A stretch of DNA of 64,000 nt from an uncultured bacterium. Its GTDB lineage: Bacteria; Babelota; Babeliae; Babelales; Babelaceae. A model generated the notes under the pieces. That model saw only the letters and a program-made list of their open reading frames with translations. It was not told the DNA's origin and searched no databases. Location of the stretch: NCBI GenBank assembly GCA_963848965.1, contig CAWKFG010000001.1, positions 96,001 to 160,000 on the forward strand. Direction: 5' to 3'. Shown here piece after piece: positions 9,450-59,395 of the stretch. A program made the position numbers and the translations under genes. Positions within the stretch are counted from its first letter, which is position 1, and each line of letters begins with the position of its first letter.

Positions 9450-9992
9450 TTAATAGGTACCTGTAGCAGATGCATCTGTGCTAGATTCATCTGTAGCTGG
9501 CATATCTTCGGCACCAGACACGTCTGTCCCAGATACGTCTGTACCAGATACGTCTGTACTAGACAAGTCTGTACCTAATTCGTCTGCGTCAGATACGCTT
9601 GGCATTTCTGTTTCTATATCCTGAGCTTGTAGAGCTCCTTCATTAGGAGTTGCTCTATCTTGATCTGTATCAATGGTAAGATCGACATCTTCTACTGCTG
9701 GTGTTGTATCTTCTTCAACAATAAGATCTCTTCCTGTGGTTTCCATAACAGGTATCTCATCTATCTGTTCTACTGTAGCTGCGGGAACATCTGTTATAGC
9801 TGCAGGTGCGGGTTCTATAGCACTTGGTTCTAGTACTCGCGACACTGTCCCTGTAGTAGTACCAACAGCAGCTTCACCTATACCTAAAGCACCTTGAGCA
9901 GCACCTGTTGCAGCTCCTACTACATTTCCTATCATTGCATATGAGCTAGAAAATGCTCCTAGAACAAGTAATGCAAAAAACTTCTTATACAT
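9450..9992 (-). CDS. Exported acidic low-complexity protein
   Basis: Signal peptide, G/A-rich segment, D/E/T-rich tail with TDVSG repeats. Confidence 0.75.
   Translation of the reverse strand: MYKKFFALLVLGAFSSSYAMIGNVVGAATGAAQGALGIGEAAVGTTTGTVSRVLEPSAIEPAPAAITDVPAATVEQIDEIPVMETTGRDLIVEEDTTPAVEDVDLTIDTDQDRATPNEGALQAQDIETEMPSVSDADELGTDLSSTDVSGTDVSGTDVSGAEDMPATDESSTDASATGTY
9513..9572. repeat. 15-bp tandem repeat, 4 degenerate copies, encoding TDVSG-like units
   Basis: accagatacgtctgt units. Confidence 0.8.
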
Positions 9993-10165
9993 AATTTCTC
10001 CTTAGTTAAACGAATCTCTTTACTATAATTATTGCATACAATTAGCAAATAAAACAATATTTTATATATAATAATTGATTGTTTTTCAATAATAATGGCG
10101 GTGTGGCATGAAAATATAGTTATCTTTGTCTTGCATATGATGCTCGAGATAAGCTTCTTAATGTA

Positions 10166-11560
10166 TTAAGGATGAATAAGGTATTCTGCTAGTTTATTAA
10201 CTTTACCTGCTCCTAAAAGAAGCACAAGGTCTTGTTCTGTTAAAAGAGAGTCCAACTGTGAACTAATGGCTTTAAGCTGTGTATCATAAGGAATGTAGGT
10301 GATAGGGCATGATGGTTGCTTTTCTTTAATTGCTTGTACGAGGTTATAGCTCGTTATATTTTCAATAGGTGCTTCACTTGCTGGATAGATATCTGTAATA
10401 ATAAGATGATCTATGGGACTATAGGCAAAGAGATTTACAAAATCTTGCCAAAGCTTGTGAGTACGGGTATACCGTTGTGGTTGAAAAACTACAATAAGCT
10501 TTTTATGTGCTCTTTTACGAGCTACTAGTAATGTATTAAATATCTCAGTTGGATGGTGGCCGTAGTCATCAAAGAGTTCGGCCCCTCTATAGATGCCTTT
10601 ATAGCTGAATCTTCTTTCAATACCTTTAAAGTTTTTAAGAGCTTCAGCGCATACCTCAAAAGGAATTTCTACATCACGAGTAACAGCAAGAGCTGCTAGA
10701 GCATTAAGTACATTATGCCGTCCAGGCATGGCAAGCGTAAGAGAACCAAGAGGCTCTGGTTTGTCTTTAGCCCATACAGTGAATGTAGAATGATCTTTGT
10801 CTAAGATAACGTCCTTGGCGTATATGTCGGCTACCAGTTCGTTAAGACCGTACTTTACTGTTTTAATATGTGGTAAAGGAAGTATTGACTGAATATGTGG
10901 ATCGTCTATACATACAAATGCCTTGCCATAAAAAGGAACATTATTAAGAAACTGAGTAAATGTCTGCTTAATATCGTCAAGATCTTTATATGTATCAAGA
11001 TGCTCTAAATCAATGTTTGTAACAACGGCAAGAGTAGGATATAATCGTAAAAGAGATCTATCACTTTCATCTGCTTCTGCTACTATAAAATCTCCAGTTC
11101 CCCAACGTGCATTTGTAGAAATACTCTTAAGATGTCCACCAATAATAACGGTAGGATCTCTATGAGCTTCAATAAGAATATGAGAAATCATCGATGTCGT
11201 TGTCGTTTTTCCATGAGCGCCGGTAATAGCAATGCTGTATTTTGTGCGCATAATTTCAGCAAGCATAAGTGCCCGAGGAATAGTAGGAATACCACGTGCT
11301 TGAGCTGCAAGAATTTCTGGCGCATCTGGTTTAATCATTGTTGAATAAACCAGAACATCAATGCTCGGATGAGTACAAAATGGGGTATTATTTCCTTGAT
11401 AGATCGTGCATCCAATACTTATAAGCTCTTCTACACTTTTTTGTTCTAAATCTAAATCGCAGCCACTGATAGTATATCCTTGGTATTTAAGAACTTTAGC
11501 AATTCCGCTCATCCCAATACCACCGATACCTACAAAATGAATATGTCCCTTTTTGTACAT
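10166..11560 (-). CDS. murC: UDP-N-acetylmuramate--L-alanine ligase
   Basis: HFVGIGGIGMSG, GAHGKTTT, EADESD, DDYGHHPTE. Confidence 0.97.
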   Translation of the reverse strand: MYKKGHIHFVGIGGIGMSGIAKVLKYQGYTISGCDLDLEQKSVEELISIGCTIYQGNNTPFCTHPSIDVLVYSTMIKPDAPEILAAQARGIPTIPRALMLAEIMRTKYSIAITGAHGKTTTTSMISHILIEAHRDPTVIIGGHLKSISTNARWGTGDFIVAEADESDRSLLRLYPTLAVVTNIDLEHLDTYKDLDDIKQTFTQFLNNVPFYGKAFVCIDDPHIQSILPLPHIKTVKYGLNELVADIYAKDVILDKDHSTFTVWAKDKPEPLGSLTLAMPGRHNVLNALAALAVTRDVEIPFEVCAEALKNFKGIERRFSYKGIYRGAELFDDYGHHPTEIFNTLLVARKRAHKKLIVVFQPQRYTRTHKLWQDFVNLFAYSPIDHLIITDIYPASEAPIENITSYNLVQAIKEKQPSCPITYIPYDTQLKAISSQLDSLLTEQDLVLLLGAGKVNKLAEYLIHP

Positions 11561-11719
11561 TGAAGATCCCTACGCAAGTGAAAGCCTTTATAAGGAAAGT
11601 ATACTTCTTTTTGGGAAAAAGAAAAATGAGTAGTAACGGAACGTGTACGAGAAATAGGTATTCCTGCTATACTTATAAGCTTATTATTCATCGTGTAATT
11701 TCGTGAAAAAGGTAAAGAT

Positions 11720-13663
11720 ATGCATAAAATACTACTTTTTTACTGTATAGGCACCTCTCTTACAATGCAAGGAATGAAGAGAGAACAGGAGCCCATCGAC
11801 CATAAAGCACTAGAGAAAAAGCACAAATGCTCGAATGATGCACCAATGTTTTTACTTGTACAAGCGCTTAAAGAATCAAATGTAGAAAAAGTGCGTGAGT
11901 TATTAGCTTTATATACAGATATTAATGCTCATATTCATGAGGGAAAAACTGCTTTATATATAGCAGCACAAGGCGGTAATAGTACGATTATAAAAATGTT
12001 GCTTGACGCAGGAGCAAGTCCCAATAGCTCCTGTATAACAGCTCAAGGAAAAACGGGAACTCCTCTTTTTATGGCTATATACAGGAAGCATACGGAAATA
12101 GTTGATATGTTCATTAGTGCTGAAGCCTTTATTCATGTATCCGATAGCAGCGGTGTTACTCCTTTAATGGTAGCTTCCTATAGTGGGAGTCTTGAGATAG
12201 TAGAAAAATTACTTGCTTGTGATGCGCCTGTTAATGCTCAAAATGAAGATGGTTGGACTGCTTTAATGTTTGCAGCACAGGAAGGTTACAAAGAAATAGT
12301 GCATGTGCTTATATGTGCTAACGCAGATGTCAATGCACACAGTAGTAATGGTTTAACTGCTTTGCATTTGGCTGTACAAGAAAGTCATACAAAAGTGATG
12401 AAGCTATTGCTTAATAACGGAGCTGAGCTTGATAGAACATATACAAATGAAGAAGGTATGGCAGATATCACTTCTTTAATGGACGCAGTAGAGTGTGGGC
12501 ACAAAAAGATGGTAACCTATCTTCTTGAAAAAGGTGCAGATATTAATGCTCAAAATGCTTGTGGTGATACGCCCTTAATGCTTGCTGTAGAACAGGGAAA
12601 TAAAGAAATAGCGGAGCTACTTATTGCACAAGGTGCTGACATGGATATGCAAGATATTGATGGAGTAACTGCTTTGCATACAGCAGTACATCAGGAACAG
12701 ACAGAAATACTAAAGCTTCTGTTGCATAACGAAGCTAACCCTCATAGTGGGCGCAATGAAGTTGGTGAAGGAGAAACTATTATAGCGCAAAATGTAACAC
12801 CCCTTATGGATGCATCTGATAGAGGATATAAGGAGATAGTGCATACGCTTATTACGTCCGGGGCCTATATTAACGAATATGATACTCGAGGATACAGTGC
12901 CTTATTGTATGCTGCAAAAGGAGGTTATAATGAGATACTGCTTATGCTCCTTAAGCATCAAGCATGTTTTACTTTACAAGATAAGGGTATAGTAGAAACG
13001 AGAGGGAATGAATGGCCGCTAGAAAGTAAAATGCTTTTAAAGCTTTGTTTAATGTCAGGGATGCAGATGTATAGAAACAACTCTTTATCATATATACAGC
13101 AGATAATAAAAGAATGTATGTTACAGGGTATATATAAAAGGATGTGTCAATGTAGTTCTACACAATGCTTTCATCAGACAGTGCCTATGGTGCTCAGTAT
13201 ATTTGGTGATAAAGAAGGAACTGAAACTTTGCTAAAAGTAGGTTTACCGCTTTGGTACCTTAATGCTCAAGATGCAGACGGTAGAACAGCGCTTATGTAT
13301 GCCATTATTTTTAGAAATTACGATATAGCACAACTTCTTATGCAAGCATATGAAAGAATAGCATACCAGTGCTATGAAGCCTTGCACAGGGAAGTAGATT
13401 CTGTAAAACAAGTACAGCCTAAACAGGAATTAGTAAAAGCAGAAAGAGCAATAAATATCTGTGATAAACAGGGTAAAAATGCTCTTGCTTATGCTCTTGA
13501 GAAGAATGATAAAGATATGGTTCTCAGACTTTTACAAGCAGGTGCTCGGCCAAGTATAGAGATTATAGAAAAGATAGCTGCGCTCGCAGACAAAACTATT
13601 CTTTTGCAGCTTATACTAAAAGGCTTTATTCAACCAAATTATGAATACAAAGTTATTTTTTGA
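11720..13663 (+). CDS. Exported ankyrin repeat protein
   Basis: Signal-like N-terminus; multiple G-x-TPL/TAL ankyrin repeats. Confidence 0.9.
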   Translation: MHKILLFYCIGTSLTMQGMKREQEPIDHKALEKKHKCSNDAPMFLLVQALKESNVEKVRELLALYTDINAHIHEGKTALYIAAQGGNSTIIKMLLDAGASPNSSCITAQGKTGTPLFMAIYRKHTEIVDMFISAEAFIHVSDSSGVTPLMVASYSGSLEIVEKLLACDAPVNAQNEDGWTALMFAAQEGYKEIVHVLICANADVNAHSSNGLTALHLAVQESHTKVMKLLLNNGAELDRTYTNEEGMADITSLMDAVECGHKKMVTYLLEKGADINAQNACGDTPLMLAVEQGNKEIAELLIAQGADMDMQDIDGVTALHTAVHQEQTEILKLLLHNEANPHSGRNEVGEGETIIAQNVTPLMDASDRGYKEIVHTLITSGAYINEYDTRGYSALLYAAKGGYNEILLMLLKHQACFTLQDKGIVETRGNEWPLESKMLLKLCLMSGMQMYRNNSLSYIQQIIKECMLQGIYKRMCQCSSTQCFHQTVPMVLSIFGDKEGTETLLKVGLPLWYLNAQDADGRTALMYAIIFRNYDIAQLLMQAYERIAYQCYEALHREVDSVKQVQPKQELVKAERAINICDKQGKNALAYALEKNDKDMVLRLLQAGARPSIEIIEKIAALADKTILLQLILKGFIQPNYEYKVIF

Positions 13664-18179: not shown

Positions 18180-19016
18180 ATGCTTCTAAAAATATTATAT
18201 ACTTTACCACTTTTACCATTTTTATGCCTCTATAGTATGGAGGCTCCGCCTAAGGAAGACAAAAATTATAATGACTTTGTTATTCTCTGTCAAGCTCTTG
18301 AAAAAGGTAATAAAGAGCTTATTGCTCAACTTACCTTTCAGTTAAATATAAATAGTCCAGCCACCTTTCTTTTAAATGAGCCTCTCTTACACTGGATACT
18401 TTTTAGAGCAGAACTTGCATGGATTCCTGAGGGATTACGTCAAGATTATAGGTATGAGCTTGTAACATGCTTATTGATCTGGGGTGCAGATAAGGATATT
18501 CAAGATGCTTATGGTATGGCTGCTCTTCATAAGGCAGCGATGGGAGGAGACAAGCGGCTTGTGATGTTTCTTGTAGCTCATGACGTATATATCAATTGTC
18601 GATCCTTGAGTGGTTGGACTCCTTTATCATATGCGATTGCTCAAGGACATGTACCTATAGTTTCTTATTTATTAGAATGTACTTCTGCTCTTATTACACT
18701 TGGTAATAATGTGTGGGAAGGAGATTATAAGCTTGCAGTAGACCATCTTGAGAGAGAAGTCAAGTTTTTGTCGGTCTTAAAGAACGTAGAGCAAGGACAA
18801 ATTGCACGGCTAAAAGAGCGTGTTCTGCAAAGAGCTGAAATAGTAAAGATACTTAAAACTCACTTATGTTCGGTAAAAGGAAGATATGCTCTTCTTCGCC
18901 GAAAATGCTTCTTATGTCACCGCCGATTTTATAAAAGTGATATGCTCTTAATTTGTGACTATCAGGGCTATTTTGCTCATGGTAGATGTATTAAAGGTTA
19001 TAAGGAAAAAAGATAA
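18180..19016 (+). CDS. Exported ankyrin repeat protein with C-terminal Cys/His (RING-like) motif
   Basis: Start at MLLKILY (18180); ankyrin repeats; C-terminal CFLC...ICDYQGYFAHGRCI. Confidence 0.8.
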   Translation: MLLKILYTLPLLPFLCLYSMEAPPKEDKNYNDFVILCQALEKGNKELIAQLTFQLNINSPATFLLNEPLLHWILFRAELAWIPEGLRQDYRYELVTCLLIWGADKDIQDAYGMAALHKAAMGGDKRLVMFLVAHDVYINCRSLSGWTPLSYAIAQGHVPIVSYLLECTSALITLGNNVWEGDYKLAVDHLEREVKFLSVLKNVEQGQIARLKERVLQRAEIVKILKTHLCSVKGRYALLRRKCFLCHRRFYKSDMLLICDYQGYFAHGRCIKGYKEKR

Positions 19017-20313: not shown

Positions 20314-21297
20314 TTAGAGTAAAACAGGAAGCTTTTCGCCAGTTGGTTGTCGCGCTATAAGTGAAAGAAGACGAATTGCTAGTTCATACAGTCCAAGTTT
20401 TGTAGCATATTCAATAACTTTAGTAGTAGGTCGAGCACCACTATCTGTCAGTGCTTTGACGAAGCGGATATCTCCTGTTTCAACTGCATGCATAAAAGCA
20501 GACTTGCCTTCAGTGTCAGCTACGTTTAATTCTTTTCTTAGTCCTTGAGGTATATATGCTTTAACAAGAGTTTGGACAATTTCAAAGTTACCAAACATAA
20601 GAGCGTACATAAGGGGAGTACGACCATACTCATCTTTATGATTTATATATTCAAAAGGAAGCTTAAGTTCTTCAATAAGATGGTGCACAACTGCTTGTTG
20701 TCCAAAAATAGCAGCGTAATGAAGGTATTGTGGATTTAGTGTGTTAGTAAGTTGAATAGAATCGGTGATGCATTTCAAGGGATTAACAAAGTAACCTTGA
20801 GTGGTAAGCATAGTGTGGAGAGTCAAAAGAGAATGAATTTCCCTTTGGTTTTCATTTTGCGCAATGTCCAAAGCTGTCTGCTGTACTGTATCTGTAAAAC
20901 CATAATTTTTATGAATGAGGATTGGTCTTTGAGCATTACTATCTGCACCTGCTTTTAAAAGAAGTATAACTATGTTTCTATGCCCAAAAAGAGTAGCGAG
21001 CATAAGTGGAGTAAGGTTAAATAGTCCATTTTTATAGAGTGGTTTATTAAGAGCTACGTCTGTTTTGCACAGTTCTTGTACTGCTTCTATATTATTCTCT
21101 TTTATTGCTTTTATGAGAGCTTTATAGTGAAGATCTTCATTTTCTTTCAAAAAATAAGCATAAAGTGCACCTTTGACCATAGTGCTATAACTTATTACAG
21201 GTTGTTTAGGTGTACCTGTAAGAGTTCTTTTCATGCTATAAGCAGAACTTGCTATACCTGCAAGAAGACAAAGAAAAAAGAGTTTTATTTTATACAC
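20314..21297 (-). CDS. Exported ankyrin repeat protein
   Basis: Signal peptide; TPLMLA and GRTPLMYA ankyrin repeats. Confidence 0.88.
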   Translation of the reverse strand: MYKIKLFFLCLLAGIASSAYSMKRTLTGTPKQPVISYSTMVKGALYAYFLKENEDLHYKALIKAIKENNIEAVQELCKTDVALNKPLYKNGLFNLTPLMLATLFGHRNIVILLLKAGADSNAQRPILIHKNYGFTDTVQQTALDIAQNENQREIHSLLTLHTMLTTQGYFVNPLKCITDSIQLTNTLNPQYLHYAAIFGQQAVVHHLIEELKLPFEYINHKDEYGRTPLMYALMFGNFEIVQTLVKAYIPQGLRKELNVADTEGKSAFMHAVETGDIRFVKALTDSGARPTTKVIEYATKLGLYELAIRLLSLIARQPTGEKLPVLL

Positions 21298-22733: not shown

Positions 22734-23813
22734 CTATTTTTTTCGAACACTGATAGCTGCTCTCAATATCTTTACTATTTCTTTATGATGCTCTTTTTCT
22801 GCATACATTATGGCTGTCCAACCCCTTTCATCTTGAATAATAGCGTTTGCTCCTGCATCTAGAAGCATTTTGACTATTTTTTGATTGTTTTCAGAATCAC
22901 CACCTTTAGATGAGGCAATCATTAGAGCAGTATGTCCAGAGTTGTTTTTAGCGTTGACATTTATTCCTGCTTCTATTAGTACCTTTGTTCTACCTACACT
23001 GTTAAAGAATACTCTAACTGCATACATTAATGCAGTATATCCCTTATTGTCTTGAGCATTAACCTCAGCCTTACGAGAAAGCAACTTTTTCAGTATCTCT
23101 TCTGAGTCATGAAAAGAATCTGCCGCTGCTATTAAAGGGGTAAATCCAATATCGTTGCGTGCATTAATAGTAGCGCCAGCATTTAAGAGAGGTTCTATGA
23201 GGTCTTTATGTCCTTCATGGGCAGCATAGAGTAAAGCGGTCCACCCGCCGTTTGTCGGAAGATTAATGTTAGCTCCAGCATCAATGAGCATTTGTACTAG
23301 TTCCTTATTACCATTGAATGCAGCTGCTGGCAGTGCTGTAGCATTATACCTATCCTTAAGATTGACGTTGGCTCCCCTTTGTATAAGCAAAGCCACAATG
23401 CTCGCACAGTTTTGTTGAGTAGCGTATACAATAATAGTATCGACTGGGTCTTGCATTTTATTGATACTTACCCCTGCTTTTAGAAGAAGTTTAGCTTTGT
23501 CTACAGCATTATCTTTTATTAACTTTAATAGTACAAGGGCTTTTTGCTCTTGTGATAAGCTTTCAGATAATAATTCTAACGCTAAACGCTTTTCTTGCTC
23601 AACAGTAAGTACGATCTTCTCCATAGCATTGAGAGCACATGAAAAACATAGGATAAAAAAGAAATAAAATAGTGATGATTGCCTTTGTGAGCAGAGCTTT
23701 ATGATTTCCATATGATTCCTTGAAATTTCCTCGAGCGCGTGACCCGGATGGATTTTAGACTGAAGAAATAGTACTGATAAAAGTCCAATTATTGTTTCTT
23801 TTTCTCTCATCAT
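22734..23813 (-). CDS. Exported ankyrin repeat protein (true start uncertain, probably nearer 23710)
   Basis: Hydrophobic LFYFFFILCFSCALNA-MEK followed by about 8 ankyrin repeats. Confidence 0.85.
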   Translation of the reverse strand: MMREKETIIGLLSVLFLQSKIHPGHALEEISRNHMEIIKLCSQRQSSLFYFFFILCFSCALNAMEKIVLTVEQEKRLALELLSESLSQEQKALVLLKLIKDNAVDKAKLLLKAGVSINKMQDPVDTIIVYATQQNCASIVALLIQRGANVNLKDRYNATALPAAAFNGNKELVQMLIDAGANINLPTNGGWTALLYAAHEGHKDLIEPLLNAGATINARNDIGFTPLIAAADSFHDSEEILKKLLSRKAEVNAQDNKGYTALMYAVRVFFNSVGRTKVLIEAGINVNAKNNSGHTALMIASSKGGDSENNQKIVKMLLDAGANAIIQDERGWTAIMYAEKEHHKEIVKILRAAISVRKK

Positions 23814-24190
23814 GAGCTTAATAATTTTTCTAAGATACTATTCTTAACTATACTACTTTTTGGCAAATTGTCATGTAGTAAGAAAAGTTTTATAAATAGT
23901 AGAAAGAACAGACTTTTCAAGGATACTCTCTTAGTTTTTAGAATAGTCTAACATCCAGTTTATGATGATTTTGCATGTCAATATTATTAGACAAATAGGA
24001 TACTTGTGATAAAATATAAAGACAATATTTATTATTTTAAATCAAAATTAAAAAAACAATAGGAAATTGTATGCTGTACCGTCTTTTAATCTTCTTTTCT
24101 TTATCTATCTTCTCTTTTCAATTGAGCGCTATGGAGCAGATATATAAAAAGCCAGATAATCATAAAAATACCAAGCAAAAGGGTGACTTA

Positions 24191-25119
24191 GAGCCTATCT
24201 CTAAAATGGAAAAAAGGTTGAAAATATAATAAAATCTCCTTCTAAAGAATCGCGATCAACGATCAAGAAGGAGATTTACACATGTGTCATACAAAAAATT
24301 GTTATGAAGTATGCATAAACAAGAAGTTTCTTATAACTCCAAATTTATGGAAAGATATAGAAAAAATAATACCAAAAATAAGCGAAAAATCAAAGCGGGG
24401 AAGACCCTCAATGGATATGAAAAGAGCAATAAATGGTATCTATTATCTGTTAAGGACAGGTATACAATGGAATGCATTGCCTAGATGCTTTGGATCGTAC
24501 TCTGCTGTCCATAAACTGTTTCAAAAATTAAGGTCTGTCGAGTTCTTTAAATATTTATGGTATGCTGAACTTGACCAATATGATAAAATTCACGGACTTA
24601 GTCTAGAAACTCAAGCTGCTGATTGTGTTTATATTAAAGCGCCCTTGGGTTCAGAGAAAACAGGCAAGAGCCCAGTAGATAGGAGAAAATTAGGAACAAA
24701 ACGAAGCATATTAACTGATAAAAACGGTATAGTTATCGGTTGTGCGTTAGGTAGCGCTAATCAGCACGATTCTCAGCTATTTTTGGATACCTTATTATCC
24801 ATTCCTAAGCATATATCCATGCCTTATAGCAAAATTATAAGTTTAGATGCAGCTTATGATTCAGCGCAAATAAGAGCCTACTTGCTGCATTACAGCTATG
24901 TACCTAAAATAATGAAAAATAAAAGAAAAGCTAAAAATAAAGTTTATGGTGTACCAGAAGGTTATCAACGCTGGTTCATTGAACCTACGCATTCATGGCT
25001 CAATCGGTTTAGGCGCTTGTTTGTTCGTTATGAAAAATACGCTTTAAACTATATGGCTATGGTTTATTTTGCCGTAGCTATCATTATTTTTAACAAATTA
25101 TGAATTTACGGATAGGCTC
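24191..25119 (+). mobile_element. IS5-family insertion sequence (929 bp)
   Basis: Terminal IRs GAGCCTATCtcTAAA / TTTAcgGATAGGCTC; TTA target duplication at 24188-24190 and 25120-25122. Confidence 0.92.
24282..25103 (+). CDS. IS5-family DDE transposase
   Basis: GRP..D...INGIYYLLRTGIQWNALP, LDAAYDS, RWFIEPTHSWLNRFRRL..RYEK. Confidence 0.93.
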   Translation: MCHTKNCYEVCINKKFLITPNLWKDIEKIIPKISEKSKRGRPSMDMKRAINGIYYLLRTGIQWNALPRCFGSYSAVHKLFQKLRSVEFFKYLWYAELDQYDKIHGLSLETQAADCVYIKAPLGSEKTGKSPVDRRKLGTKRSILTDKNGIVIGCALGSANQHDSQLFLDTLLSIPKHISMPYSKIISLDAAYDSAQIRAYLLHYSYVPKIMKNKRKAKNKVYGVPEGYQRWFIEPTHSWLNRFRRLFVRYEKYALNYMAMVYFAVAIIIFNKL

Positions 25120-27552: not shown

Positions 27553-27645
27553 TACTTCACCATATTACCAAAAGATCTCTTTGTTCAGCTTCTTCTTTTT
27601 CTTAATAGTCAAGAAACAAGTACTGGAAAGTCTTAAAAGGGCTTT
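27553..27645 (+). repeat. Direct repeat copy 1 (3' end of the ankyrin/F-box gene)
   Basis: Near-identical to 28139-28232. Confidence 0.85.
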
Positions 27646-27788: not shown

Positions 27789-28075
27789 ATGAAAACACTT
27801 TATTTACTCTACTTTGCATATTCTCTTCGTATGCTTATACCATGAAAGAAGAGAGAGCTTCTAATAATATTCAACAAGCAGACGCCATCATGGAAGAAGA
27901 CTCTGATGATATGCCTATATCATCAAAAAAATGTACTTATACTCTTCAAAGTCATGCTGACTCTGAGATCAATAAAAAGAGGCAAAAAAAAGAGCATGTT
28001 TGTGACAAATGTGGTAAAGATTTTACTCAACATGGACATTTAATTAGTCATATGCGTATTCATAACAAAGGCTGA
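27789..28075 (+). pseudogene. Exported C2H2 zinc-finger protein with 1-nt frameshift in the signal peptide
   Basis: MKTLYLL / LLCIFSSYAYT-MKEE joined by a 1-nt shift; KKRQKK then HVCDKCGKDFTQHGHLISHMRIH. Confidence 0.7.
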
Positions 28076-28387: not shown

Positions 28388-31300
28388 ATGTTTTACTACC
28401 TTTTTATGATTCCTCTCTTATATTTTTCATTTTACCTTAATGCTATGGAAAAAGTAGCTGAAACAAGGTCACAAGAAAATCATATTATTTTAAACCTTTC
28501 TCCTGAGAGTATGCTTCTAAAAGCTGTGTTTAATAAGAATATAGATGAAGTTCAATCTCTCTGTCAGTCAAAAGTAAATGTTAATGTACAAGCTAAAGAT
28601 GGTAATACTCCTTTAATAGTTGCGGCAATAAAAGAATCTAAAGAGATAGTAGAAATACTTTTAGCTGCAGGTGCTGACGTATGTATTCAAAATACTAAGG
28701 GTGCTACAGCTTTAGTTGGCGCTATAGAGTTTAATCAAAAAGATATCGCAAGGGTACTTTTAGACGCAGATAAAGGTAGTGATATTAATGCTTGTATTGC
28801 AAATGGTCTTACTCTTTTGGGCCATAGCGTATCTCATGAGCATGAAGAACTAGTAAATTTATTTCTTGAAAAAGGCGCAAGCGTTAATGTTCGGGATACA
28901 TTTGGGCGTACAGCACTGATGTATGCAGTAGCCAAGGGAAATAAGAAAATAGTAGAGCTTCTTTTAGGTGCAGGTGCTGCTCTTGATATAAAAGATAACC
29001 AAGGCTGGACAGCAATAACATATGCAGCTTGCTATTTTCATGAAGAATTACTCTTGCTCTTTAAAAAAAGAGATAGAGAAAGGGTGCTTAAAGAGATTAA
29101 TGAGCTTTTACTGGCTAGTATACAGAATGATAACATCCGTTTGTTCACTCTGTTATTAAAATGTGGTGCCAGCGTTTACACTAAAGACATTACTGAAACA
29201 CCTGTTCTCATACGAGCTGCAAAAAGAGGTAATGAGGGAATGGTTAAAATGCTTTTAGATGAGCATGCGTACATTGATAAGACAGATTCTAAAGGGTGTA
29301 CTGCTTTAATGTATGCTGCACAAAATGGATATGAAGGTATAGTAAAACTGCTTATATCCAGAGGAACAGATATCAATTGGACAAGTTTTAATAACCTTAC
29401 AGCTCTTATGTACGCTGCAGCTAATGGCAGAGAAGAAATAGTAAAAATATTGTTAGATGCAGGTGCTGATAGTAAAAAGAAAGATCGTCAGAATACTACT
29501 GCTTTAATGTATGCGGTTAAAAACAATCATAAAGGAGTAGTAACATTACTTTTAGATAGATGTATACAAGATATTACTAAAGCTGATACTGCAGCTCTTG
29601 TATCTTCGGCTATTGAGAGTGAAAATAAAGATATGGTAGCGCTCCTTATAGATCGCGGGACTGACGTTAACCTTAAAGTTGGATACTATGATACTCCTCT
29701 CTTAAGTTTGGCGGCTTCTAAGGGCTCTAAGGAAATAGTAGGCTTACTTTTAAATAAAGGTGCTCGTATAAATGTTCGAGATAATGATGGCAAAACTGCC
29801 TTAATCCACGCAGCAAAGGATGGACATATTGAAGTAGTTAAGCTGCTTCTAAGTGGAGTATCAACAGCTGAGGGTAAAGATAGAGAGCCATCATTATTAA
29901 GAGATACTGCTGATATTAACGCCAAGGATAAGGATCTTAATTATACTGCTCTAATGAGGGCTGTAAAGAATGGACACAAAGAAGTAGTAGCCTTGCTTGT
30001 AGATAGAGGGGCAGATCTTGATATTCAAGATATAATGAATAAAACAGCCTTGATGCTTGCTACTGAGGGTAGACTTAAAGAAATAGTAGCATTGCTTATG
30101 GATAAAGGTGCTGATTCTTCTATTGCTAACAGTGAGGGGGATACACCGTTGATAAAGGCTGCAATGAATGGGCATGAAGATATAGTGACTGTACTTCTTG
30201 ATAAGGGTGCTGATATCAATGAGCGAAATTCTGTTCACGGTAATACTGCATTGGAATTTGCTGCAGGTGAAGGGCACAAGGAAGTAGTACAAATACTTTT
30301 AAAAAGGGGCTCTAAGGTTACTATTGCAAATAGATATAGAGGTACTGCCTTAACGTCAGTTGTATCAAGGAGCCATAATAAGGAAATACTAGAACTTCTT
30401 ATAGCTCATGGCGCAGACGTTAATACTATTGATCGAGAAGGTTGGACTGCTTTAATGTGGGCTTCCTATCAAGGTAGTAAAGAGCTGGTAAAAGTACTTT
30501 TAGATGCAGGAGCTGACGTTAATGCTAAAAGAGAATATGGTCCAACTGCTTTAATGAAGGCTGTCGAGAAAAAGCAAAAAGAGATAGCAGAAATGCTTAT
30601 TAAGGCTGGCGCAGATGTTACTATCCAAACTGGCAATAGCTGGACTGCTTTAATGGCAGCTGCCCAAAAAGGTGACAGGGAAATAGTAGCATTGCTTTTG
30701 GCTCATGGTGCAAACATTAATTTAGTAAATACTCTGTATGGTAATACTGCCCTCATGCATGCTCTAGTTACTGGTAAGAAAAAAGTAGCAGAAATGCTTA
30801 TTAAGGCAGGTGCTGATGTTAATGTGCAAAATAATGAAGGAGATACTCCTTTGATGGAAGCTATAAAGAGAAGATGTAAAAAGTTGGCGATTCTGCTTAT
30901 AGAAAGAGGTGCGGATATTAATGTTAAAAATAAGAAAAGCATAACTGCTCTCCTTGATGCTGCAAAAAAAGGAGATAAAGAACTAGTAAAAGTGCTTATT
31001 GACGCCGGTGCTGACGTTAATGCTCAAGGTAGCATAGATGGCTGGACGCCCTTAATGTATGCTGTACATAACGGATATCAAGAAATAGTGGTTTTGCTTA
31101 TAGGTTCATATGCAAAACTTAATCTGCAAAATAATAAAGGTGAAACTGCCTTAGATATAGCGATGAATAACAAATCTCAAGGAAGTAAAGATAATGTTCA
31201 TCTTATAACCTTATGTAATGATCCTGAAGTGCAAGCTTATCTTAAAGATCCTGAAGGGTACGCTCAAAGTAAGCGATACATTAACGGCACTCTGACAGTA

Positions 31301-31676: not shown

Positions 31677-33137
31677 ATGTTATATGTAGTATATACTCTT
31701 TCTTTGCTTTGTGTTTCATTGTCCATTACTGCTATGCATGAAACAGATAGCAAAGAATTACAGAACCCCTGTAGCAATGTAGAGCTTTTATCAGAAGAGC
31801 AAAAGGCTTCTTTACTTTTTGAAGCAGTAAAAAATAATGATGTAACGGCTGTGAGAAGTCTCTGTTCTAGCATAAAAGATATTAATGCTCACTATAATGA
31901 GAAGATAGGCTTCACTTCTTTAATGTGGGCAGCTGCTCAAGGAAATAAGGAAATAATTGCCCTTCTTCTTAAGCATGGAGCTCGGACTGAAATACGAAAT
32001 GTACGTAAAATGACTGCTCTATCATATGCTGCAGAAAACGGACATCTAGAGATAGTAAAAATGCTTTTAGATAGTGGTGCTTATAGTGATGTTCAACGTA
32101 ATGATGGGGAAACGCCATTAATATCTTCAATAAAGGATGGCCATAAAGAAGTTGCAAAGCTTCTTATAGCACGAGGTGCTAATGTAAGCTTGCAAGATAA
32201 CATTGAACATTCAGCTCTTGATGCTGCTCTTAAGCTGGCGGATAAAGAGCTCATAAATTTGATTGTTAGAGCAGATGTACACATTAACGAGTACTATATG
32301 TCTGGTTATACTCGTTTAATATCTTCCTTAAAATATCACTACGCTAGAGAAGGAGCTTTGCTGCTTGATACAGATATTGATGTTAATGCTCCAAGTAAAG
32401 ATGGTGATACTCCTTTAATAGTGGTCTCAGAGCAAGGAAACTTAAAAGCGGTAGAGCTACTATTACAGAAAAAGGCGGATGTTAATAGTGCAAATAAGAA
32501 AGGTACTACGGCTTTAATGATGGCAGTAATACATGGATACAAAGAGATTGCAGCTCTGCTTATAAAAGCAGGGGCAGATTGTAATGCTTGCAATAGCTAT
32601 GGATACACTCCTTTGAAGTTTGCTGATGGCAAGAACCATAAAGAAATCGTGCGACTATTAGAGTTGTCTAATACGCCTGAAGTGCAAGCATATCTAAAAA
32701 ACCCTCAAGCATATGCTCAAAAAGAATGCTCTATTGTAGGAAAAACAACACCGCTGATGCTTGCTTGTATATTTGGGCACTACGATGTTATTTCTTCTTT
32801 TAAGAACTGCCCGCGTAAATACCTTATTGAATCAGATGATAGCGGTTATACAGCTTTTGATTATGCTTTTATGTTTAACATACGTAGTGTTGCTACCCTT
32901 ATTCATACTTTTGAAAAGAAAGATATTGTTTATACCTTTGGCAAAAATGCTGTTGCCAGTACTTATGACTGCCTTGAAAAGGCAATAGAAAGTAAAAACA
33001 CAGAAGCAGTTAGTGCTCTTTTAGGTATTGATATTGTTCCATCTTTTGGCATAGTTCAAGGAATAGAAGAGGCTGGATATTTCAATGTTTTACCTAAGGA
33101 TCTTTTTGTGAAATTGCTTTTTTTCACGAATAGTTGA
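31677..33137 (+). CDS. Exported ankyrin repeat protein with C-terminal F-box-like motif
   Basis: Start MLYVVY at 31677 (RBS AAAGGA); ends YFNVLPKDLFVKLLFF. Confidence 0.9.
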   Translation: MLYVVYTLSLLCVSLSITAMHETDSKELQNPCSNVELLSEEQKASLLFEAVKNNDVTAVRSLCSSIKDINAHYNEKIGFTSLMWAAAQGNKEIIALLLKHGARTEIRNVRKMTALSYAAENGHLEIVKMLLDSGAYSDVQRNDGETPLISSIKDGHKEVAKLLIARGANVSLQDNIEHSALDAALKLADKELINLIVRADVHINEYYMSGYTRLISSLKYHYAREGALLLDTDIDVNAPSKDGDTPLIVVSEQGNLKAVELLLQKKADVNSANKKGTTALMMAVIHGYKEIAALLIKAGADCNACNSYGYTPLKFADGKNHKEIVRLLELSNTPEVQAYLKNPQAYAQKECSIVGKTTPLMLACIFGHYDVISSFKNCPRKYLIESDDSGYTAFDYAFMFNIRSVATLIHTFEKKDIVYTFGKNAVASTYDCLEKAIESKNTEAVSALLGIDIVPSFGIVQGIEEAGYFNVLPKDLFVKLLFFTNS

Positions 33138-33811: not shown

Positions 33812-34989
33812 ATGCTTTACTATCTTTTAATGTTCTTTTCTTTTATATTTTTTCTTTTCAACTGAACGCTATGGAGCAAACCCTTGAAGAGTAATTTGCT
33901 TCAATGGAGAAATTAAAAATAGTGCATCTTAAAAAACAGTTTGATGTTCGGATAGAAGATTAATCAGAAAAAAGGAAAGTTGCTTTACTTGAAAAGTAAT
34001 AAACTACTATTCAATGCAATCAAGGAGGCGTTGAAGAAATTATCTTAACAATGTTATTGAAAGTCTTTTTCAAGCTAAAGTAGCTAGTAATGCACCAGAT
34101 GAGTATGGGCAACTTCCCTTAATATATGCTATATGGCAAGACAACGCATCGTTAATTTCGCTGCTTCTAGCAAATGGTACCCATGTTAATGATAAAGATG
34201 CTGAAGGTAAAACAGCATTGCTCCATGCAGCTCACCGAGACTATCAAGATATAGTGCACATATTGCTAGATAGGAGCAGAGGTAAACGCTCAAGATAACA
34301 AGGGTAACACTGCTTTAATGGGATGTGTAGATTTCTTAATCTATTCTTTATCGGCTCTCCTAATACGTGCAGGTGCTGATGTTAATGTTCAAGATAATCA
34401 AGGTAAGCTTGCTATAGCACATCTTCCTGTGATTTTAAGAGAAGTTCCTGCATATCAAGATAGAAAAAGAATGAAGCGCTTTTTGAAATTGTGTCAATTA
34501 CCTGAAGTACAAGCATATCTTAAAGACCCTCTAGCATTTGCTACTATCCATAAAGAAGAGTATTTTATCGGTAAAATAACAGCCCTTATGCTTGCGTGCA
34601 TATTTTGTCATGAAGAAGTTATCTCTTTCTATAAAGATTGCAGCGTCAATACCTTAATTTAGTAGATATTATGGTAACAGCGCTTTTGATTATGCTGTTG
34701 ATTACGATCGAAGTCTCGAAGCATTTATCTATACATTTGGTAAGGAAGTAGACAATTACAGCTAAAAGGTCGCACTATTCTTGAAAATGCTATGAAAAAA
34801 GAAAGAGTTCCTCTTATAGATGCAATTTTAAAAGCGGGGGTACAGTGCCCCTTTAAGGTTATTCAAGGTACATCAAAAGCTGGTTATTTAAATAAATTGC
34901 AGAGTAATCTTTTTGCTGAATTGCTTCTCTTTAAAAAAAGAGGTGAAATGCTATATTCAGATTACACTGCATGGCAGTTTAAAAACTAA
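33812..34989 (+). pseudogene. Decayed ankyrin / F-box-like paralog
   Basis: Leader and signal peptide (MLYYLLMFF...QLNAMEQ) paralogous to 24071; several stops and frameshifts; LCQLPEVQAYLKDP module and AGYLNKLQSNLFAELLLF tail. Confidence 0.85.
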
Positions 34990-55008: not shown

Positions 55009-55683
55009 ATGAAGAGAGTGCTTAGTGCTTTCATTTTGTGTTTTTTTACTATAAATATGTTACATGGTATGAATTCACAGAAAGATGATGCGTCAAAGAA
55101 AGATTTGACAAAAAGTTTCAATGGTCTTGGTTCATTTTATGATATAGCATCTCCAGATGGAAAGCTGCGGCAAGCACAAGGAGAGCCTGTTGTAGAACAG
55201 GTGGTACCACAACAAGCATCTTCTGATAAAGTACAAAGTCCTCGTGGGTCTGACCAACAACAGCAAGAAGAGCATATACATCTAAAAGCGCCTTCTCGGC
55301 AAGATTCTCCTCGTCAGATACATCAAGCTCCTCAAGAAGCAGTAGCTGAAACTGCTCAACCAGCTCCTACTAGCTTTCAAGAAAGATTAGCAAAGAAGGA
55401 GAATACTCAGAAGGAGCCACAACCTGCTGCAAAACAGGAAGCTCCGGTTACTATAAAAGAGTGTTCTTTGGCAAAACCAATTCTTTTGACTACTCTAGCT
55501 GCTGGTGCTCTTTATGCAGTACATAAACCAACACGTCAGAAGGTTAACGATCTTATTTCTCGAGCGAGTAAAAAAATTAAAGAAAGCAGGCGAGCGCAGA
55601 TACTAGTAGGTACTTCACTGCTAGCAGCTGCAGGATTAGTATGGTGGTGTTGTACGCATAACGGCGTAGCGAGTAATGTATAG
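55009..55683 (+). CDS. Exported membrane protein with Q/P-rich linker and two hydrophobic segments
   Basis: Signal peptide; ILLTTLAAGALYAV and ILVGTSLLAAAGLVWW. Confidence 0.75.
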   Translation: MKRVLSAFILCFFTINMLHGMNSQKDDASKKDLTKSFNGLGSFYDIASPDGKLRQAQGEPVVEQVVPQQASSDKVQSPRGSDQQQQEEHIHLKAPSRQDSPRQIHQAPQEAVAETAQPAPTSFQERLAKKENTQKEPQPAAKQEAPVTIKECSLAKPILLTTLAAGALYAVHKPTRQKVNDLISRASKKIKESRRAQILVGTSLLAAAGLVWWCCTHNGVASNV

Positions 55684-55965
55684 TTTAAAAAAAGGAGAGG
55701 AGAATGAAGCGCATGAACAATGAAGGGGGGGCATTTGATTAATACTTTCTTGCTTGCTATACTTATGTTTAATTAGTTTTGAAATTTGACACATAAGGAG
55801 GTCGGATAGCAAAAGTAATATAAGTGAAAGCTTTTAAACATAAGAGGCTATTGACAAGAAAAAAACATTCTATAAATTGGTAACAAGTAGAATGTGTAAT
55901 CCTTAACAAACAGTAAGGTTATGAATAAAACAATACTATTTCATAATTCTATGGAGGACAAACTT

Positions 55966-56694
55966 ATGAATTCTTTTAAAAAATCTTTTTTAAGTCTTGC
56001 ATTACTTGTTGTTGCAGCTCCTGCACTTGTTGCAGGTGGTGAAGCTCCTAAAGCTCCAGAAGCTGCTCCTGCAGAAGCACCTAAGGCTGCAGAAGCGCCT
56101 AAAGCTGCTGAAGCGAAAACTCCAGGATGGGCAAGCCGTCTCTTTACAGCTTCAAAAAGACCGTTCACAGAACCTAAAAAGATGTGGAACGAAGGTACCT
56201 GTAAAGACAGAGCGCAAATGGCTGGTACTTATGCAGCTATCGCAGCTGGTGTAACTGGACTTGCTTATAAATTTATTCCGCAAGTTCGTAGCACAATTAA
56301 CACTGGTTGGGCAAAAACCAAAGCTGGTGTTAACGCAGTTGTTGATCGCGTGAAAAAAGATAAGACAGCACAAGTGATTGCTGGTGGAACAGCTGCTGCT
56401 TTAACAGCTGTTACTGGTTATTTCATTTGGAAAAAAGTAAAAGCTGCTAAACCTGCAGTTGAAGAAAAAGCTAAGGAAGCTGCTGATACAGCAAAAGAAG
56501 CAGCTAAAGAAGCTGCTCCTAAGGCAGAACCAGCTGTAAGTGCAGAGCAACTTGCAAAAGATGCTGCTAAGGTAGTTGAGAAAGCGCATGAAGTGCCAAC
56601 TCATAACATTGGTGATGCTGCTAAAACTGTTAATGCAGAAAAACCAGCAGAACAATCTAAAGCTGAACCTAAAGCTGAACCTAAAGCAGTATAA
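55966..56694 (+). CDS. Exported membrane protein, A/K/E/P-rich with two hydrophobic segments
   Basis: Start MNSFKK at 55966 (RBS GGAGG); EAPKA repeats; AAIAAGVTGLAYK and IAGGTAAALTAVTGYFIWK. Confidence 0.8.
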   Translation: MNSFKKSFLSLALLVVAAPALVAGGEAPKAPEAAPAEAPKAAEAPKAAEAKTPGWASRLFTASKRPFTEPKKMWNEGTCKDRAQMAGTYAAIAAGVTGLAYKFIPQVRSTINTGWAKTKAGVNAVVDRVKKDKTAQVIAGGTAAALTAVTGYFIWKKVKAAKPAVEEKAKEAADTAKEAAKEAAPKAEPAVSAEQLAKDAAKVVEKAHEVPTHNIGDAAKTVNAEKPAEQSKAEPKAEPKAV

Positions 56695-56716
56695 GCACTT
56701 GCTTAATTCAGAAATT

Positions 56717-56747
56717 AAAGAGGCTCCCAAATCGGGAGCCTCTTTTT
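56717..56747 (+). terminator. Rho-independent terminator
   Basis: AAAGAGGCTCCC-aaatc-GGGAGCCTCTTTTT. Confidence 0.85.
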
Positions 56748-56864
56748 GTTAAAGTCACTTAAGGGTGACTTTTTCTTTTGACTATCTTGCTTCTCTTTTT
56801 ATACTTTTCTTTTCTACTAGACATTGGTTAATGTAGTACTCAAAAACCTTGATTTTGAGGGCTT

Positions 56865-56892
56865 TTGACAAAGCAATTTCTTTTTGTACAAT
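56865..56892 (+). promoter_or_regulatory. Putative promoter
   Basis: TTGACA-N16-TACAAT. Confidence 0.6.
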
Positions 56893-56939
56893 TTAGTAGG
56901 TGTAATAAAGCACATAAAAATTGTACCTAAGGAGTTACT

Positions 56940-57744
56940 ATGCAACTATTTAAATTATCGCTTATTGCAGTGATAGTGGCTCTTGGAGCTTCACTATCAG
57001 TCCTAGCTATGGAAAAAGAGCCCAAAAAGGCCGCTATAAATATTAAGTTAAAAACAGTAGATCCTAATAGTGCTATTGCACAGTTAGGTAAAAAGCTTGA
57101 GCCTACAATTGCACTTGCTTATGGAGCTGCTAAGGCAGACAAAGAGAATCCTCAGCCTCGAAGAGCTGTTCCTATAGCAAGAGCCTGCACCGGGAGCAGC
57201 AAAGATACCGCCACCGCCACTTGGAGGGATGCGTCCTGGTGTTGACGGAGTTCTTCTTGCTCGACTCCAGGAGGAGTTACATAAGATAGCGGATCTTGAG
57301 AGACAACTGCAGCGACTTATGGTGCGCTTAGAAGAGATGCAAAGGCAAGGTCAGGTTCAAGAAGATCTCAAGAAAGTTATTGAAGATCTTAAAGAGCTTA
57401 AAAAAGAAGCTGAAAAGAAAGCAGAAAAAATAGAAGAAAAGGTTGTACAAACATCTTCTACGCCATCATTGCAGTTAGATAAAGATGTGGTTATGATTGC
57501 AGGAGCTGTTGCTGCAGGAACGATTACTGGTGCAGTTGCGCTTTATAAGTGGTGTATGCCATTTCAACAACATTGTACTGCTGCATGGAATAAAGCAAAG
57601 CAAGGAGCTTCTAAAGCCTATACATGGTTAAAGGAGCACAAGGCAGTTACTGCATTTGTAGGAGGTGCTGCAGTAAGTGCAAGCGCCTTAGGTGGCCTTT
57701 GGTATCTTAACTCATCTATACACAAGTCTCCTTCTCGTAAATAA
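56940..57744 (+). pseudogene. Exported membrane protein split by frameshift near 57175
   Basis: Signal-peptide ORF 56940-57245 continues in the next frame from 57178 (QEPAPGAAKIPPPPLGGMRP...) into a coiled coil and two hydrophobic segments. Confidence 0.7.
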
Positions 57745-57747
57745 TTG

Positions 57748-57776
57748 AAAGCCCTCATTATGAGGGACTTTTTTTT
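57748..57776 (+). terminator. Rho-independent terminator
   Basis: CCCTCAT-t-ATGAGGG followed by T-tract. Confidence 0.7.
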
Positions 57777-57880
57777 CTATTAAAGGGGGGCTTTTGACTG
57801 ATAGGATAGATAGTGTAAATTAGAAAATAACTAGTAAAATAATAATTGTGCATATTCATTTTTCTTATGGAGGTTTACTT

Positions 57881-59395
57881 ATGAAATTGAAAAATGCGTT
57901 ATTTCTTAGCGTAAGTTTATTGCTTGCTGCAACGCCAGTTGTTCAAGCAATGGAAAAACAAGAACCAGAAGTTGTAAAGATAAATATTATAGAACCGGAG
58001 ATAAATCTTGAGATCAAGCAGCCAGCAGAACAGAAACCTGCTGAAGCGGCTAAGGCACCAGAAGCTCCAAAGGCTGAAGAAACACCTGTTGAAAAGCAAG
58101 CGTGGTTTAAGCGCCTTGGTAAAAAAGAAGCTCTTATAGCTGGCGGTGTTGCAGGTACTGCAGCTGTAGTAGGTGCTGTATCAACAGAGCAAGGAAGAGG
58201 CTTTATTAAAAGATGGACAGTAGATCCTCTTTATAATAAGTACCAAGCAGTTAAAAAGAATGGTGTTATGCAAGAGCTTGTAACAAAGCCTGTTTTAGGA
58301 ACTATAGGTCTTGCTAGTGCAGCGACAGCCGGATGGTTTGGTTACAGATGGTTGAATAACCCTGAAAATAGAGAGCAAAAAGATAAAGTAGTTGCTCAAT
58401 GGCAACAGCATAAGAAGAAGATCTTAATCGGTGCTGGTGTTGCTGCTGCAGGTGCGTTAGCGTATAAGCTCTTAAAATCAAACTCGGCGGGTGCTCTTTC
58501 TGAAGACAAGCTTCCTGAGGTTGATCCGAAACTGCAAGTATGGCTTGATGAAGTTCGTAAAGGTATAGCAAAGGAAGACTTAGAAAAAGTTGATGCAGCT
58601 ACCGTTGCACTTGTTCTTCGTAATCCAAATCTCTTTATCTTAAAAGAGCAGCATAGTGACTTATTTAAGCTTTTAATTCCTGGAGAAAAAGAGCTTTTTG
58701 AAGAAGCAGTGCAAGCAAGTAAGCTCTTTGTACCATTGTTGAATAAAAAGCAAAAAGAAGAGCTTGTTGGCTTGATTCATGAATATAACGATGCTTTCTT
58801 TAAAGAAATAAAAGCACAGTTAGCATACTTGCATCAACTAAATAAAGAAGTGCATCAAAAGATAGCTAATGCTAAAACAGCACAAGAGCTCCTTGCGCTT
58901 GTAGATGCTCATGAAGCAAAAGAAGTATTTAAGGCTACTATTGCTAAACTTGAAGCAGGTTCTGATGCAATAACGGCAAAAGAAGCAGTAGAAATACTGG
59001 ACATAAACAAAAACTTGCTTGCTCGTACTATATACTTTACAAAGCAAGCAGAAGTTTTTGCTGCATCACTTAAAGATGCATCTTCTGTACAAAAAGACGT
59101 TATCTCTCAAAAGAAAGAAGTATCAGCACAAGCTCTTGCAGAACTTCAAATGTTCTATGAGCTACAGCTTACTGCTTTAAAAGAATCTTTTGATGGAACT
59201 CAACAAGAGCAATTGAAAAAGCATAATCTTATAAGTGTTCTTGCAAAAGCAGATAAAGATGCTTCAGTGCTTGCACAATTGATTAGTCATAAAGACTTTA
59301 AAAAGTCATTACGACAAGATCAAGTTGGCTGCATTGAGCAATTACAGCAGCTTGCTGCTCAACAACAAGCTCTTTTGCATGAATTAACTGCATAA
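57881..59395 (+). CDS. Exported membrane protein with three hydrophobic segments and a helical C-terminal domain
   Basis: Start MKLKNA at 57881 (RBS GGAGG); LIAGGVAGTAAVVG, LGTIGLASAATAGWFGYR, ILIGAGVAAAGALAYK. Confidence 0.8.
   Translation: MKLKNALFLSVSLLLAATPVVQAMEKQEPEVVKINIIEPEINLEIKQPAEQKPAEAAKAPEAPKAEETPVEKQAWFKRLGKKEALIAGGVAGTAAVVGAVSTEQGRGFIKRWTVDPLYNKYQAVKKNGVMQELVTKPVLGTIGLASAATAGWFGYRWLNNPENREQKDKVVAQWQQHKKKILIGAGVAAAGALAYKLLKSNSAGALSEDKLPEVDPKLQVWLDEVRKGIAKEDLEKVDAATVALVLRNPNLFILKEQHSDLFKLLIPGEKELFEEAVQASKLFVPLLNKKQKEELVGLIHEYNDAFFKEIKAQLAYLHQLNKEVHQKIANAKTAQELLALVDAHEAKEVFKATIAKLEAGSDAITAKEAVEILDINKNLLARTIYFTKQAEVFAASLKDASSVQKDVISQKKEVSAQALAELQMFYELQLTALKESFDGTQQEQLKKHNLISVLAKADKDASVLAQLISHKDFKKSLRQDQVGCIEQLQQLAAQQQALLHELTA

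Follow-up and report, generated by a model that had tools for sequence, protein, structure and literature searches.

Why should so many exported proteins of one bacterium have methionine (Met) as the first residue after the predicted signal-peptidase site, and what would the residue do there? The question is raised by a 64,000-nucleotide stretch of DNA, called the window below (positions 96,001 to 160,000 of contig CAWKFG010000001.1, assembly GCA_963848965.1), from an uncultured bacterium of the Babelaceae whose genome (Dependentiae/Babeliales) amounts to 1.73 Mb with 37% GC in 5 contigs. The Dependentiae are widespread and almost uncultured parasites of protists, with a very large share of the proteome bearing export signals. 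In the window, a ribosomal-protein operon has many ankyrin-repeat and orphan genes on its flanks, and an original prediction listed 13 proteins there with Met at position +1, directly after the signal-peptidase site. Our analysis shows that Met is highly enriched at this place in the whole genome, on a class of exported proteins that is probably directed to the host. The rule is apparently undescribed; literature searches found no published description of it.

Methionine at the predicted cleavage site

Open reading frames (ORFs) of at least 80 aa were called in the genome by our own procedure (n=1,472), and 787 of them have a signal-peptide-like (SP-like) N-terminus by the criteria of n-region and hydrophobic core only. 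Cleavage sites come from our own -3/-1 heuristic and are predicted throughout, the ORF and signal-peptide calls being home-made as well. Overall, in 185 of the 787 SP-like N-termini (23.5%) the first charged residue is directly preceded by Met, versus a Met background of 1.8% (binomial p ~1e-143), and the adjoining offsets have 0-34 of 787. These are the strict carriers, and the residue before Met is A/G/S/C/T in 179 of the 185, which form the strict set used below. When the site is chosen by a -3/-1 picker blind to +1, Met falls at +1 in 148 of 633 cases and at 1.6-6.2% at six neighbouring offsets, an effect that is understated because the picker is crude and often strays into the hydrophobic core. 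By these heuristics of our own, +1 Met thus lies far above background in the genome as a whole, as the original prediction supposed.

A broad carrier is defined by A/G/S/C/T followed by Met after the core, with a few residues' leeway on either side, and 341 of the 787 belong here. Anchored on the Met, these 341 have at -1 mostly A (34%), G (26%) and S (26%), with Cys at 8%, at -2 Y/F/L/Q, and at -3 L (35%), I (12%), S (10%), T (10%), A (9%) and V (9%). Their leaders are mostly 18-22 residues long, with K as precursor residue 2 in 32%. Features of a Sec-type leader for signal peptidase I (SPase I) are present, namely a basic n-region, a hydrophobic core and small or neutral residues at -1 and -3. 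Met comes after the hydrophobic segment and not before it, which does not agree with a type IV prepilin leader, and a lipobox for signal peptidase II is not seen either, as +1 is Met and Cys is only a minor residue at -1. The carrier leaders are shown in this way to be ordinary Sec signal peptides with a predicted SPase I site directly before the Met, in accordance with the earlier claim, with which the -3/-1 pattern also agrees. Among the Sec parts, SecY (window 48677-49933), SecD and YidC are encoded.

The residue after the Met is also far from random. In the 341 carriers it is E in 45%, Q in 12% and K in 10%; by type, large hydrophilic residues make up 77.7% (background 33.8%), small ones 13.2% (36.9%) and hydrophobic ones 9.1% (29.4%). 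Acidic residues stand at this place in 149 of the 179 strict cases of this genome (~83%) and in 63 of 74 from those relatives that also have the rule. A short pattern follows the Met (E/Q/K, then K/P/Q/R, then E/A/P/D), and the region beyond is rich in E, P and Q. The preference for Glu over Asp was considered as a sign of specific recognition and set aside, since the ratio of 141:8 in this genome is only 46:17 in the positive relatives and is not general.

Within the window, the 13 sites first listed are borne out for 10 intact genes and one truncated gene, while the other two are frameshifted remnants. The 10 intact genes all have an n-region, a hydrophobic core, a small residue and then Met. 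The proteins were said to include several unrelated ones; one ankyrin family accounts for 8 of the 13, and about 5 independent families are present. The sites are as follows.

9933..9992, minus strand: signal peptide MYKKFFALLVLGAFSSSYA and +1 Met, SSYA-MIG, with S at -3 and A at -1; 180-aa acidic orphan (from translation)
11720..11776, plus strand: signal peptide MHKILLFYCIGTSLTMQG and +1 Met, MQG-MKR; 647-aa ankyrin protein (translation, Pfam Ank)
18180..18239, plus strand: signal peptide MLLKILYTLPLLPFLCLYS and +1 Met, LYS-MEA; ankyrin protein (Pfam Ank), longest ORF from GTG 18129
21232..21297, minus strand: signal peptide MYKIKLFFLCLLAGIASSAYS and +1 Met, AYS-MKR; 327-aa ankyrin protein (Pfam Ank)
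23622..23711, minus strand: signal peptide MEIIKLCSQRQSSLFYFFFILCFSCALNA and +1 Met, LNA-MEK; ankyrin protein, ORF 22734-23813 (Pfam Ank)
24071..24133, plus strand: signal peptide MLYRLLIFFSLSIFSFQLSA and Met, LSA-MEQ; 53-aa truncated 5' gene fragment, adjoined by transposase ORF 24282-25103
27789..27844, plus strand: decayed leader; ATG 27789 (MKTLYLL...) is out of frame with ...SSYAYT-MKEERAS, 53 nt apart
28388..28447, plus strand: signal peptide MFYYLFMIPLLYFSFYLNA and +1 Met, LNA-MEK; 1092-aa ankyrin protein (Pfam Ank; blind picker agrees)
31677..31736, plus strand: signal peptide MLYVVYTLSLLCVSLSITA and +1 Met, ITA-MHE; 486-aa ankyrin protein (Pfam; blind picker agrees)
33812..33873, plus strand: decayed leader; ATG 33812 and the ATG 33871 of QLNA-MEQ are 59 nt apart and out of frame
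55009..55071, plus strand: signal peptide MKRVLSAFILCFFTINMLHG and +1 Met, LHG-MNS; 224-aa orphan with C-terminal hydrophobic segments (no Pfam family; blind picker agrees)
56940..57011, plus strand: signal peptide MQLFKLSLIAVIVALGASLSVLA and +1 Met, VLA-MEK; 101-aa orphan (blind picker agrees)
57881..57952, plus strand: signal peptide MKLKNALFLSVSLLLAATPVVQA and +1 Met, VQA-MEK; 504-aa orphan, longest ORF from GTG 57848 (blind picker agrees)

In ORF 22734-23813 (minus strand), an internal start at 23711 is probably the one used for the leader. Behind the two decayed leaders, ORF 27842-28075 is without an in-frame upstream start, and the ORF downstream of 33812 is 7 codons long with an early stop. 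With window queries, the orphan at 57881 gives no match in 40 relatives or the 5 nearest genomes, and no orthologue of the orphan at 55009 was found in the 5 nearest genomes.

Carriers of the methionine and its conservation

By BLAST, the 341 carriers are grouped in 148 components, of which 106 are singletons. The largest is an ankyrin component with 182 members, 141 of them carriers, and the other 200 carriers are spread over 147 components. Pfam families were compared for all SP-like ORFs lying wholly within a 464-kb sample (the window and the first 400 kb of contig C4, ORFs crossing a 20-kb cut being left out), which covers 200 of the 787. Among the 70 sampled carriers there are 21 ankyrin proteins (one with PP2C), 3 WD40, 2 LRR and 1 RING protein, together with 1 AAA ATPase, 1 FGase, 1 DUF2935 protein, 4 chance hits and 36 proteins without a family. 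Chance carriers in the broad set, in which the Met lies inside the hydrophobic core, include a BamA, an M50 peptidase, a TonB-C protein and a TrxB-like protein. Housekeeping proteins prevail among the 130 sampled SP-like ORFs that lack the Met, such as BamA, PBP, SecD, SecY, YidC, a solute-binding protein, S49 peptidases, MreC, SpoIID, PPIase, LspA, prepilin peptidase and transporters, and a block of glycosyltransferases is also present there. Eukaryote-like repeats are found in 27 of the 70 carriers versus 4 of the 130 others (Fisher p ~1e-10). The comparison of effector-like with housekeeping proteins proposed at the outset therefore gives a clear answer, the Met marking the effector-like class. 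Our analysis shows that the rule is class-specific, belonging to putatively host-directed exported proteins (ankyrin, WD40, LRR, RING, PP2C and orphans) and not to housekeeping envelope proteins; at 23.5% of SP-like N-termini, with the housekeeping exports lacking it, it is not a rule for most SPase I substrates.

Is the Met actively kept in these proteins, or is it only inherited? An alignment of the carriers centred on the Met gives pairwise identities of 6-31% at positions -15 to +12, which we take as the expectation from composition. In the ankyrin family 136 of 137 leader 15-mers are distinct and the Met is kept. In the nearest genome sampled (400 kb; SecY 81% identical), 13 reciprocal best hits with carriers were obtained, 7 of them to chance carriers. 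Of the genuine orthologue pairs, 5 of 6 keep the small residue and the Met with every neighbouring residue changed, at an overall identity of 21-37%. These sequence comparisons show the Met to be maintained by selection. They bear directly on the possibility that it is a neutral relic, that is, a former start codon left over from cytoplasmic or host-derived genes which were extended at the 5' end by a signal peptide and spread by family expansion. The pattern does look like a fused start codon, and 141 of the 341 carriers sit in one expanded ankyrin component. However, 200 carriers in 147 further components are not accounted for by that expansion, signal-peptide-bearing ankyrin proteins of relatives have no Met, and the residue after the Met is unlike the start context of this genome. 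As the Met is kept amid flanks diverged to chance-level identity, and in orthologues, a neutral origin is considered very improbable.

A start codon may still be in use, and it was suggested from the beginning that the Met could be an internal start. In this case it would be a second initiation codon giving a cytoplasmic isoform without the signal peptide. The codon is always ATG and A-rich codons follow it, the decayed leaders at 27789 and 33812 leave the Met-initiated frame open briefly, and ankyrin paralogues without a signal peptide exist, although they are few and mostly fragments. The initiation signals tell otherwise. A Shine-Dalgarno-like (SD-like) motif is found at -18 to -4 of 68% of the carriers' leader starts, which have a G-rich peak at -11 to -7, and of 47% of the first starts of other ORFs, but of only 4.7% of the +1 Met codons, fewer than the 16% at Met codons deep inside genes. 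The mRNA folding energy at the +1 Met (-9.90 kcal/mol) is like that at deep internal Met codons (-10.01) and not like that at true starts (-5.85). After the real starts of this genome the next residue is Lys in 15-32% and Glu in 7%, while Glu follows the +1 Met in 45%. In addition, a cytoplasmic role for hundreds of eukaryote-like repeat proteins is not evident. The suggestion is thus not supported, and we regard use of the Met as a start as hardly credible.

Spread through the phylum and possible roles

Relatives were analysed by the same pipeline at the protein level on stretches of ~100 kb, and of 400 kb for G087. The Dependentiae families without the rule serve as the control, since 50 kb of E. 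coli gave only 10 SP-like ORFs, which is too few. Counts below are those of Met just before the first charged residue over SP-like N-termini.

f1: G002 9/44, G003 9/46, G018 9/59
Unassigned family, nearest sampled: G087 22/177
f17: G040 7/55
f18: G044 10/56
f10: G033 7/47
f19: G073 5/38
f4: G027 6/59, of which only ~2-4 have a suitable small residue ahead of the Met (weak)
f5: G070 2/55 and 1/40
f11: G071 1/41 and 0/25
f12: G076 0/40
f3: G026 0/25
f6: G029 0/40
f2: G025 2/42

The rule had been called lineage-wide. It is clear in 5 of the 12 sampled families, weak in one and absent in 6, so that only part of this description holds. The 8 positive relatives pooled have 78/522 versus 6/308 in 6 negative ones, a comparison that is descriptive only, because kin are not independent and the genomes were grouped by the feature itself. 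Signal-peptide-bearing ankyrin proteins of the negative genomes have sites without Met, for example ...TYA-AP, ...LSA-AQ and ...CS-QQ, and charged residues (of Glu, Asp, Lys or Gln type) are often near the cleavage site in relatives without the rule. In the SecY tree the positive f19 groups with negative families (support 90/86), and the negatives f12, f5 and f2 are placed among the positives without resolution; the tree has little resolution (8 of its 17 inner branches are open, and a wrong ORF stands in one row of the outgroup), and it neither shows the positives as one clade nor gives a polarity of gain and loss. The rule is widespread without extending to the whole phylum, and gains or losses of it may have occurred repeatedly.

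The distribution bears on one functional explanation, a processing preference, in which Met at P1' would help cleavage by SPase I or its placement, or would protect acidic N-termini from extracellular aminopeptidases, with no role in the host. An acidic residue nearly always follows the Met, and the Bacteroidetes Q-rule sets a precedent, being a rule on the +1 residue by which exported proteins are stabilised, as described in PMC5837995 and PMC10653852. A single enzyme would serve both classes of exports here, as only one Peptidase_S26 gene (LepB, C1:323737-324447) is found in a genome that is 88.7% complete. Yet the housekeeping exports, and all exports of the six related families, do without Met at similarly acidic starts, and the only candidate modifier of the N-terminus that was tested, an export-tagged GNAT acetyltransferase, is not co-distributed with the rule. 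We hold this explanation to be improbable. A second, specialised signal peptidase was also considered and rejected, with the one Peptidase_S26 gene here and 1-3 matches in relatives showing no obvious link to the rule.

The rule points to a step past the inner membrane, which would be either sorting or stability inside the host. We think the chances about even that a small residue followed by Met and an acidic residue is an N-terminal code in several Dependentiae lineages, carried by hundreds of Sec-exported proteins. Signal peptidase would expose Met-Glu/Asp as the N-terminus, which would then settle the fate of the protein past the inner membrane, be it delivery into the host or persistence there. 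In that case sequence alone would suffice to list the effectors of this uncultured phylum, the repeated gain and loss of the code would reflect the mode of effector delivery or the hosts reached, and bacteria would have a counterpart to the host-targeting motifs of eukaryotic parasites.

Among the specific functions, we tentatively prefer that the Met is a one-residue cap which stabilises effectors inside the protist host, a proposal to which we would give somewhat less than an even chance. Export and cleavage would yield a protein that begins with Met and a large hydrophilic residue, an N-terminus that host methionine aminopeptidase (MetAP) would leave untrimmed and that is not a known Arg/N-degron, while a bare Glu, Asp, Lys or Gln at the N-terminus would be destabilising in the eukaryotic cytosol; the proposal is made because of these properties. 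They follow the MetAP and N-degron rules as set out in PMC8037982, where Met with a large non-hydrophobic residue is neither trimmed nor a listed degron, Glu exposed by signal peptidase leads to arginylation and degradation, and bare Glu, Asp, Lys, Arg, Gln or Asn N-termini are listed N-degrons. Those rules concern the host's own proteins, and their application to delivered bacterial proteins is our extension. Each gene could gain its Met independently, which would fit the patchy spread among families. Acetylation of the exported proteins by NatB is speculative.

Several points weigh against a cap. Both the arrival in the host cytosol and the mature N-termini are presumed for these bacterial proteins, with cleavage sites and ORFs taken from home-made heuristics. 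Ala, Ser, Thr and Val at +1 would evade the Arg/N-degron pathway equally, so that stability alone leaves the near-exclusive use of Met unexplained. Hydrophilic residues are expected after any signal peptide, so that the composition after the Met is weak evidence. In addition, there are exported eukaryote-like proteins without the Met, namely a UCH hydrolase, a MYND-finger protein, a dual-specificity phosphatase, two J-domain proteins and 4 ankyrin proteins, although one of these 4 is the window gene 22734, in which the Met is present from its internal start.

The near-exclusive Met, with other N-degron-safe residues at hand, would speak for a sorting tag. Here a free N-terminal Met-acidic motif would be read by a bacterial factor once the leader is removed, and the factor would route the class across the outer membrane, through secretins or into vesicles, while periplasmic residents stay. 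The class-specificity of the rule and the short motif after the Met with its E/P/Q-rich continuation are as expected for such a tag. N-terminal codes for sorting after cleavage exist elsewhere, as in the lipoprotein +2 rule and the Bacteroidetes lipoprotein export signal. Secretins are present too, with three in tandem here (C4:764526-774999), none of which has +1 Met; being found in 61 of 61 phylum genomes searched, they are uninformative as the discriminating machine. On the other hand, six families with the same secretins have signal-peptide-bearing ankyrin proteins without Met, so secretion in the phylum does not need the residue, and given the patchiness a receptor and hundreds of substrates would have to arise together, repeatedly. 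No candidate reader was found, with one GNAT profiled. On balance a sorting tag, although the chief rival of the cap, appears rather unlikely, though clearly less so than a processing preference.

The GNAT acetyltransferases were considered as general readers or as modifiers of the Q-rule kind. Four of the 6 genes have SP-like N-termini (C4:739307-739843, C4:849042-849737, C5:65882-66487 and C4:495730-496557), and the three of these that were scanned are all below the curated NCBIfam cut-offs (RimI/J/L and spermidine acetyltransferases). The one export-tagged GNAT searched across the phylum occurs in 4 of 60 other genomes, with 0/6 in f1, 0/5 in f10 and 2/25 in f18; it is not co-distributed with the rule and was rejected as a general reader.

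How far, then, is the rule like systems already known? A motif of Plasmodium, PEXEL, directs proteins to the host and is processed to a defined N-terminus. As there, a leader would be cleaved here and the new N-terminus, rather than the leader, would mark host-bound proteins; differently, the present case would involve a bacterium, signal peptidase I and a single Met with an acidic residue, and the role of the Met in export is putative. The closest known parallel appears to be the Bacteroidetes Q-rule, by which Gln at +1 of SPase I substrates is cyclised to pyroglutamate (PMC5837995, PMC10653852). As described there, it resembles the Met rule in being restricted to a lineage, in fixing the first mature residue after an ordinary Sec/SPase I signal peptide, and in being thought to act via the properties of the new N-terminus; in both, one residue is dominant at +1 in a lineage and not in its relatives (78/522 against 6/308 here). 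Unlike the Q-rule, which according to these reports applies Gln to most SPase I substrates and has a known enzyme, the present rule uses Met on one class, effector-like and orphan proteins, is patchy within its phylum, and has in the GNAT tested a candidate that is not co-distributed. It would be the second case in bacteria of a first mature residue fixed in a lineage, and the first limited to one class of substrates. For the phylum itself, the report on Chromulinavorax destructans (PMC6561590) puts the share of CDS with signal peptides at 44% and the number of ankyrin proteins at 98, describes ankyrin proteins and ORFans as over-represented among the CDS with signal peptides, and proposes Sec as the route. 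Our genome is similar in its large share of ankyrin and orphan proteins with signal peptides, but methionine is never mentioned in the main text of that report (0 occurrences), and the Met rule, missing or almost missing in 6 of the 12 families sampled, does not characterise the Dependentiae secretome as a whole.

Other features of the window and the genome

Within the ankyrin cluster, the transposase ORF 24282-25103 apparently splits an ankyrin gene (24071-27636) into an upstream 5' fragment of 53 codons with the leader and a downstream leaderless ankyrin ORF of 820 aa (25174-27636) with a TTG start. The ankyrin proteins 25174-27636, 28388-31666 and 31557-33137 have a C-terminal module in common, ~ LC.(N/D)PEVQAYLK(D/N)P.AYAQ ... 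T.LMLACIFGH ... LPK(D/E)LF..LLLF, which occurs in 2 copies in the first of them, and decayed copies lie at 34318-34989 and 28121-28267. ORF 27842-28075 encodes 77 aa with a eukaryote-type stretch like a C2H2 zinc finger (C..C...H....H).

Exported orphans form a run at 55009-60420 (55009, 55921, 56940/57229, 57881 and 59494), with 1-2 hydrophobic segments farther along; they are perhaps inserted in a membrane, and +1 Met is present in some and absent in others. At 9158-9514 (minus strand) there is a small exported protein made nearly wholly of Gly/Tyr repeats (GYGYY...), with the site SQIEA-RR and no Met. The region 60527-61645 encodes a thioredoxin-reductase-like flavoprotein (Pyr_redox_2) with an SP-like hydrophobic N-terminus. 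Finally, two MutS-domain proteins of ~1,170-1,190 aa outside the window (C4:85991-89497 and C4:95335-98916) have SP-like N-termini followed by Pro-Met-Glu (KPMEKE and APMEDI), which is an odd setting for MutS domains.

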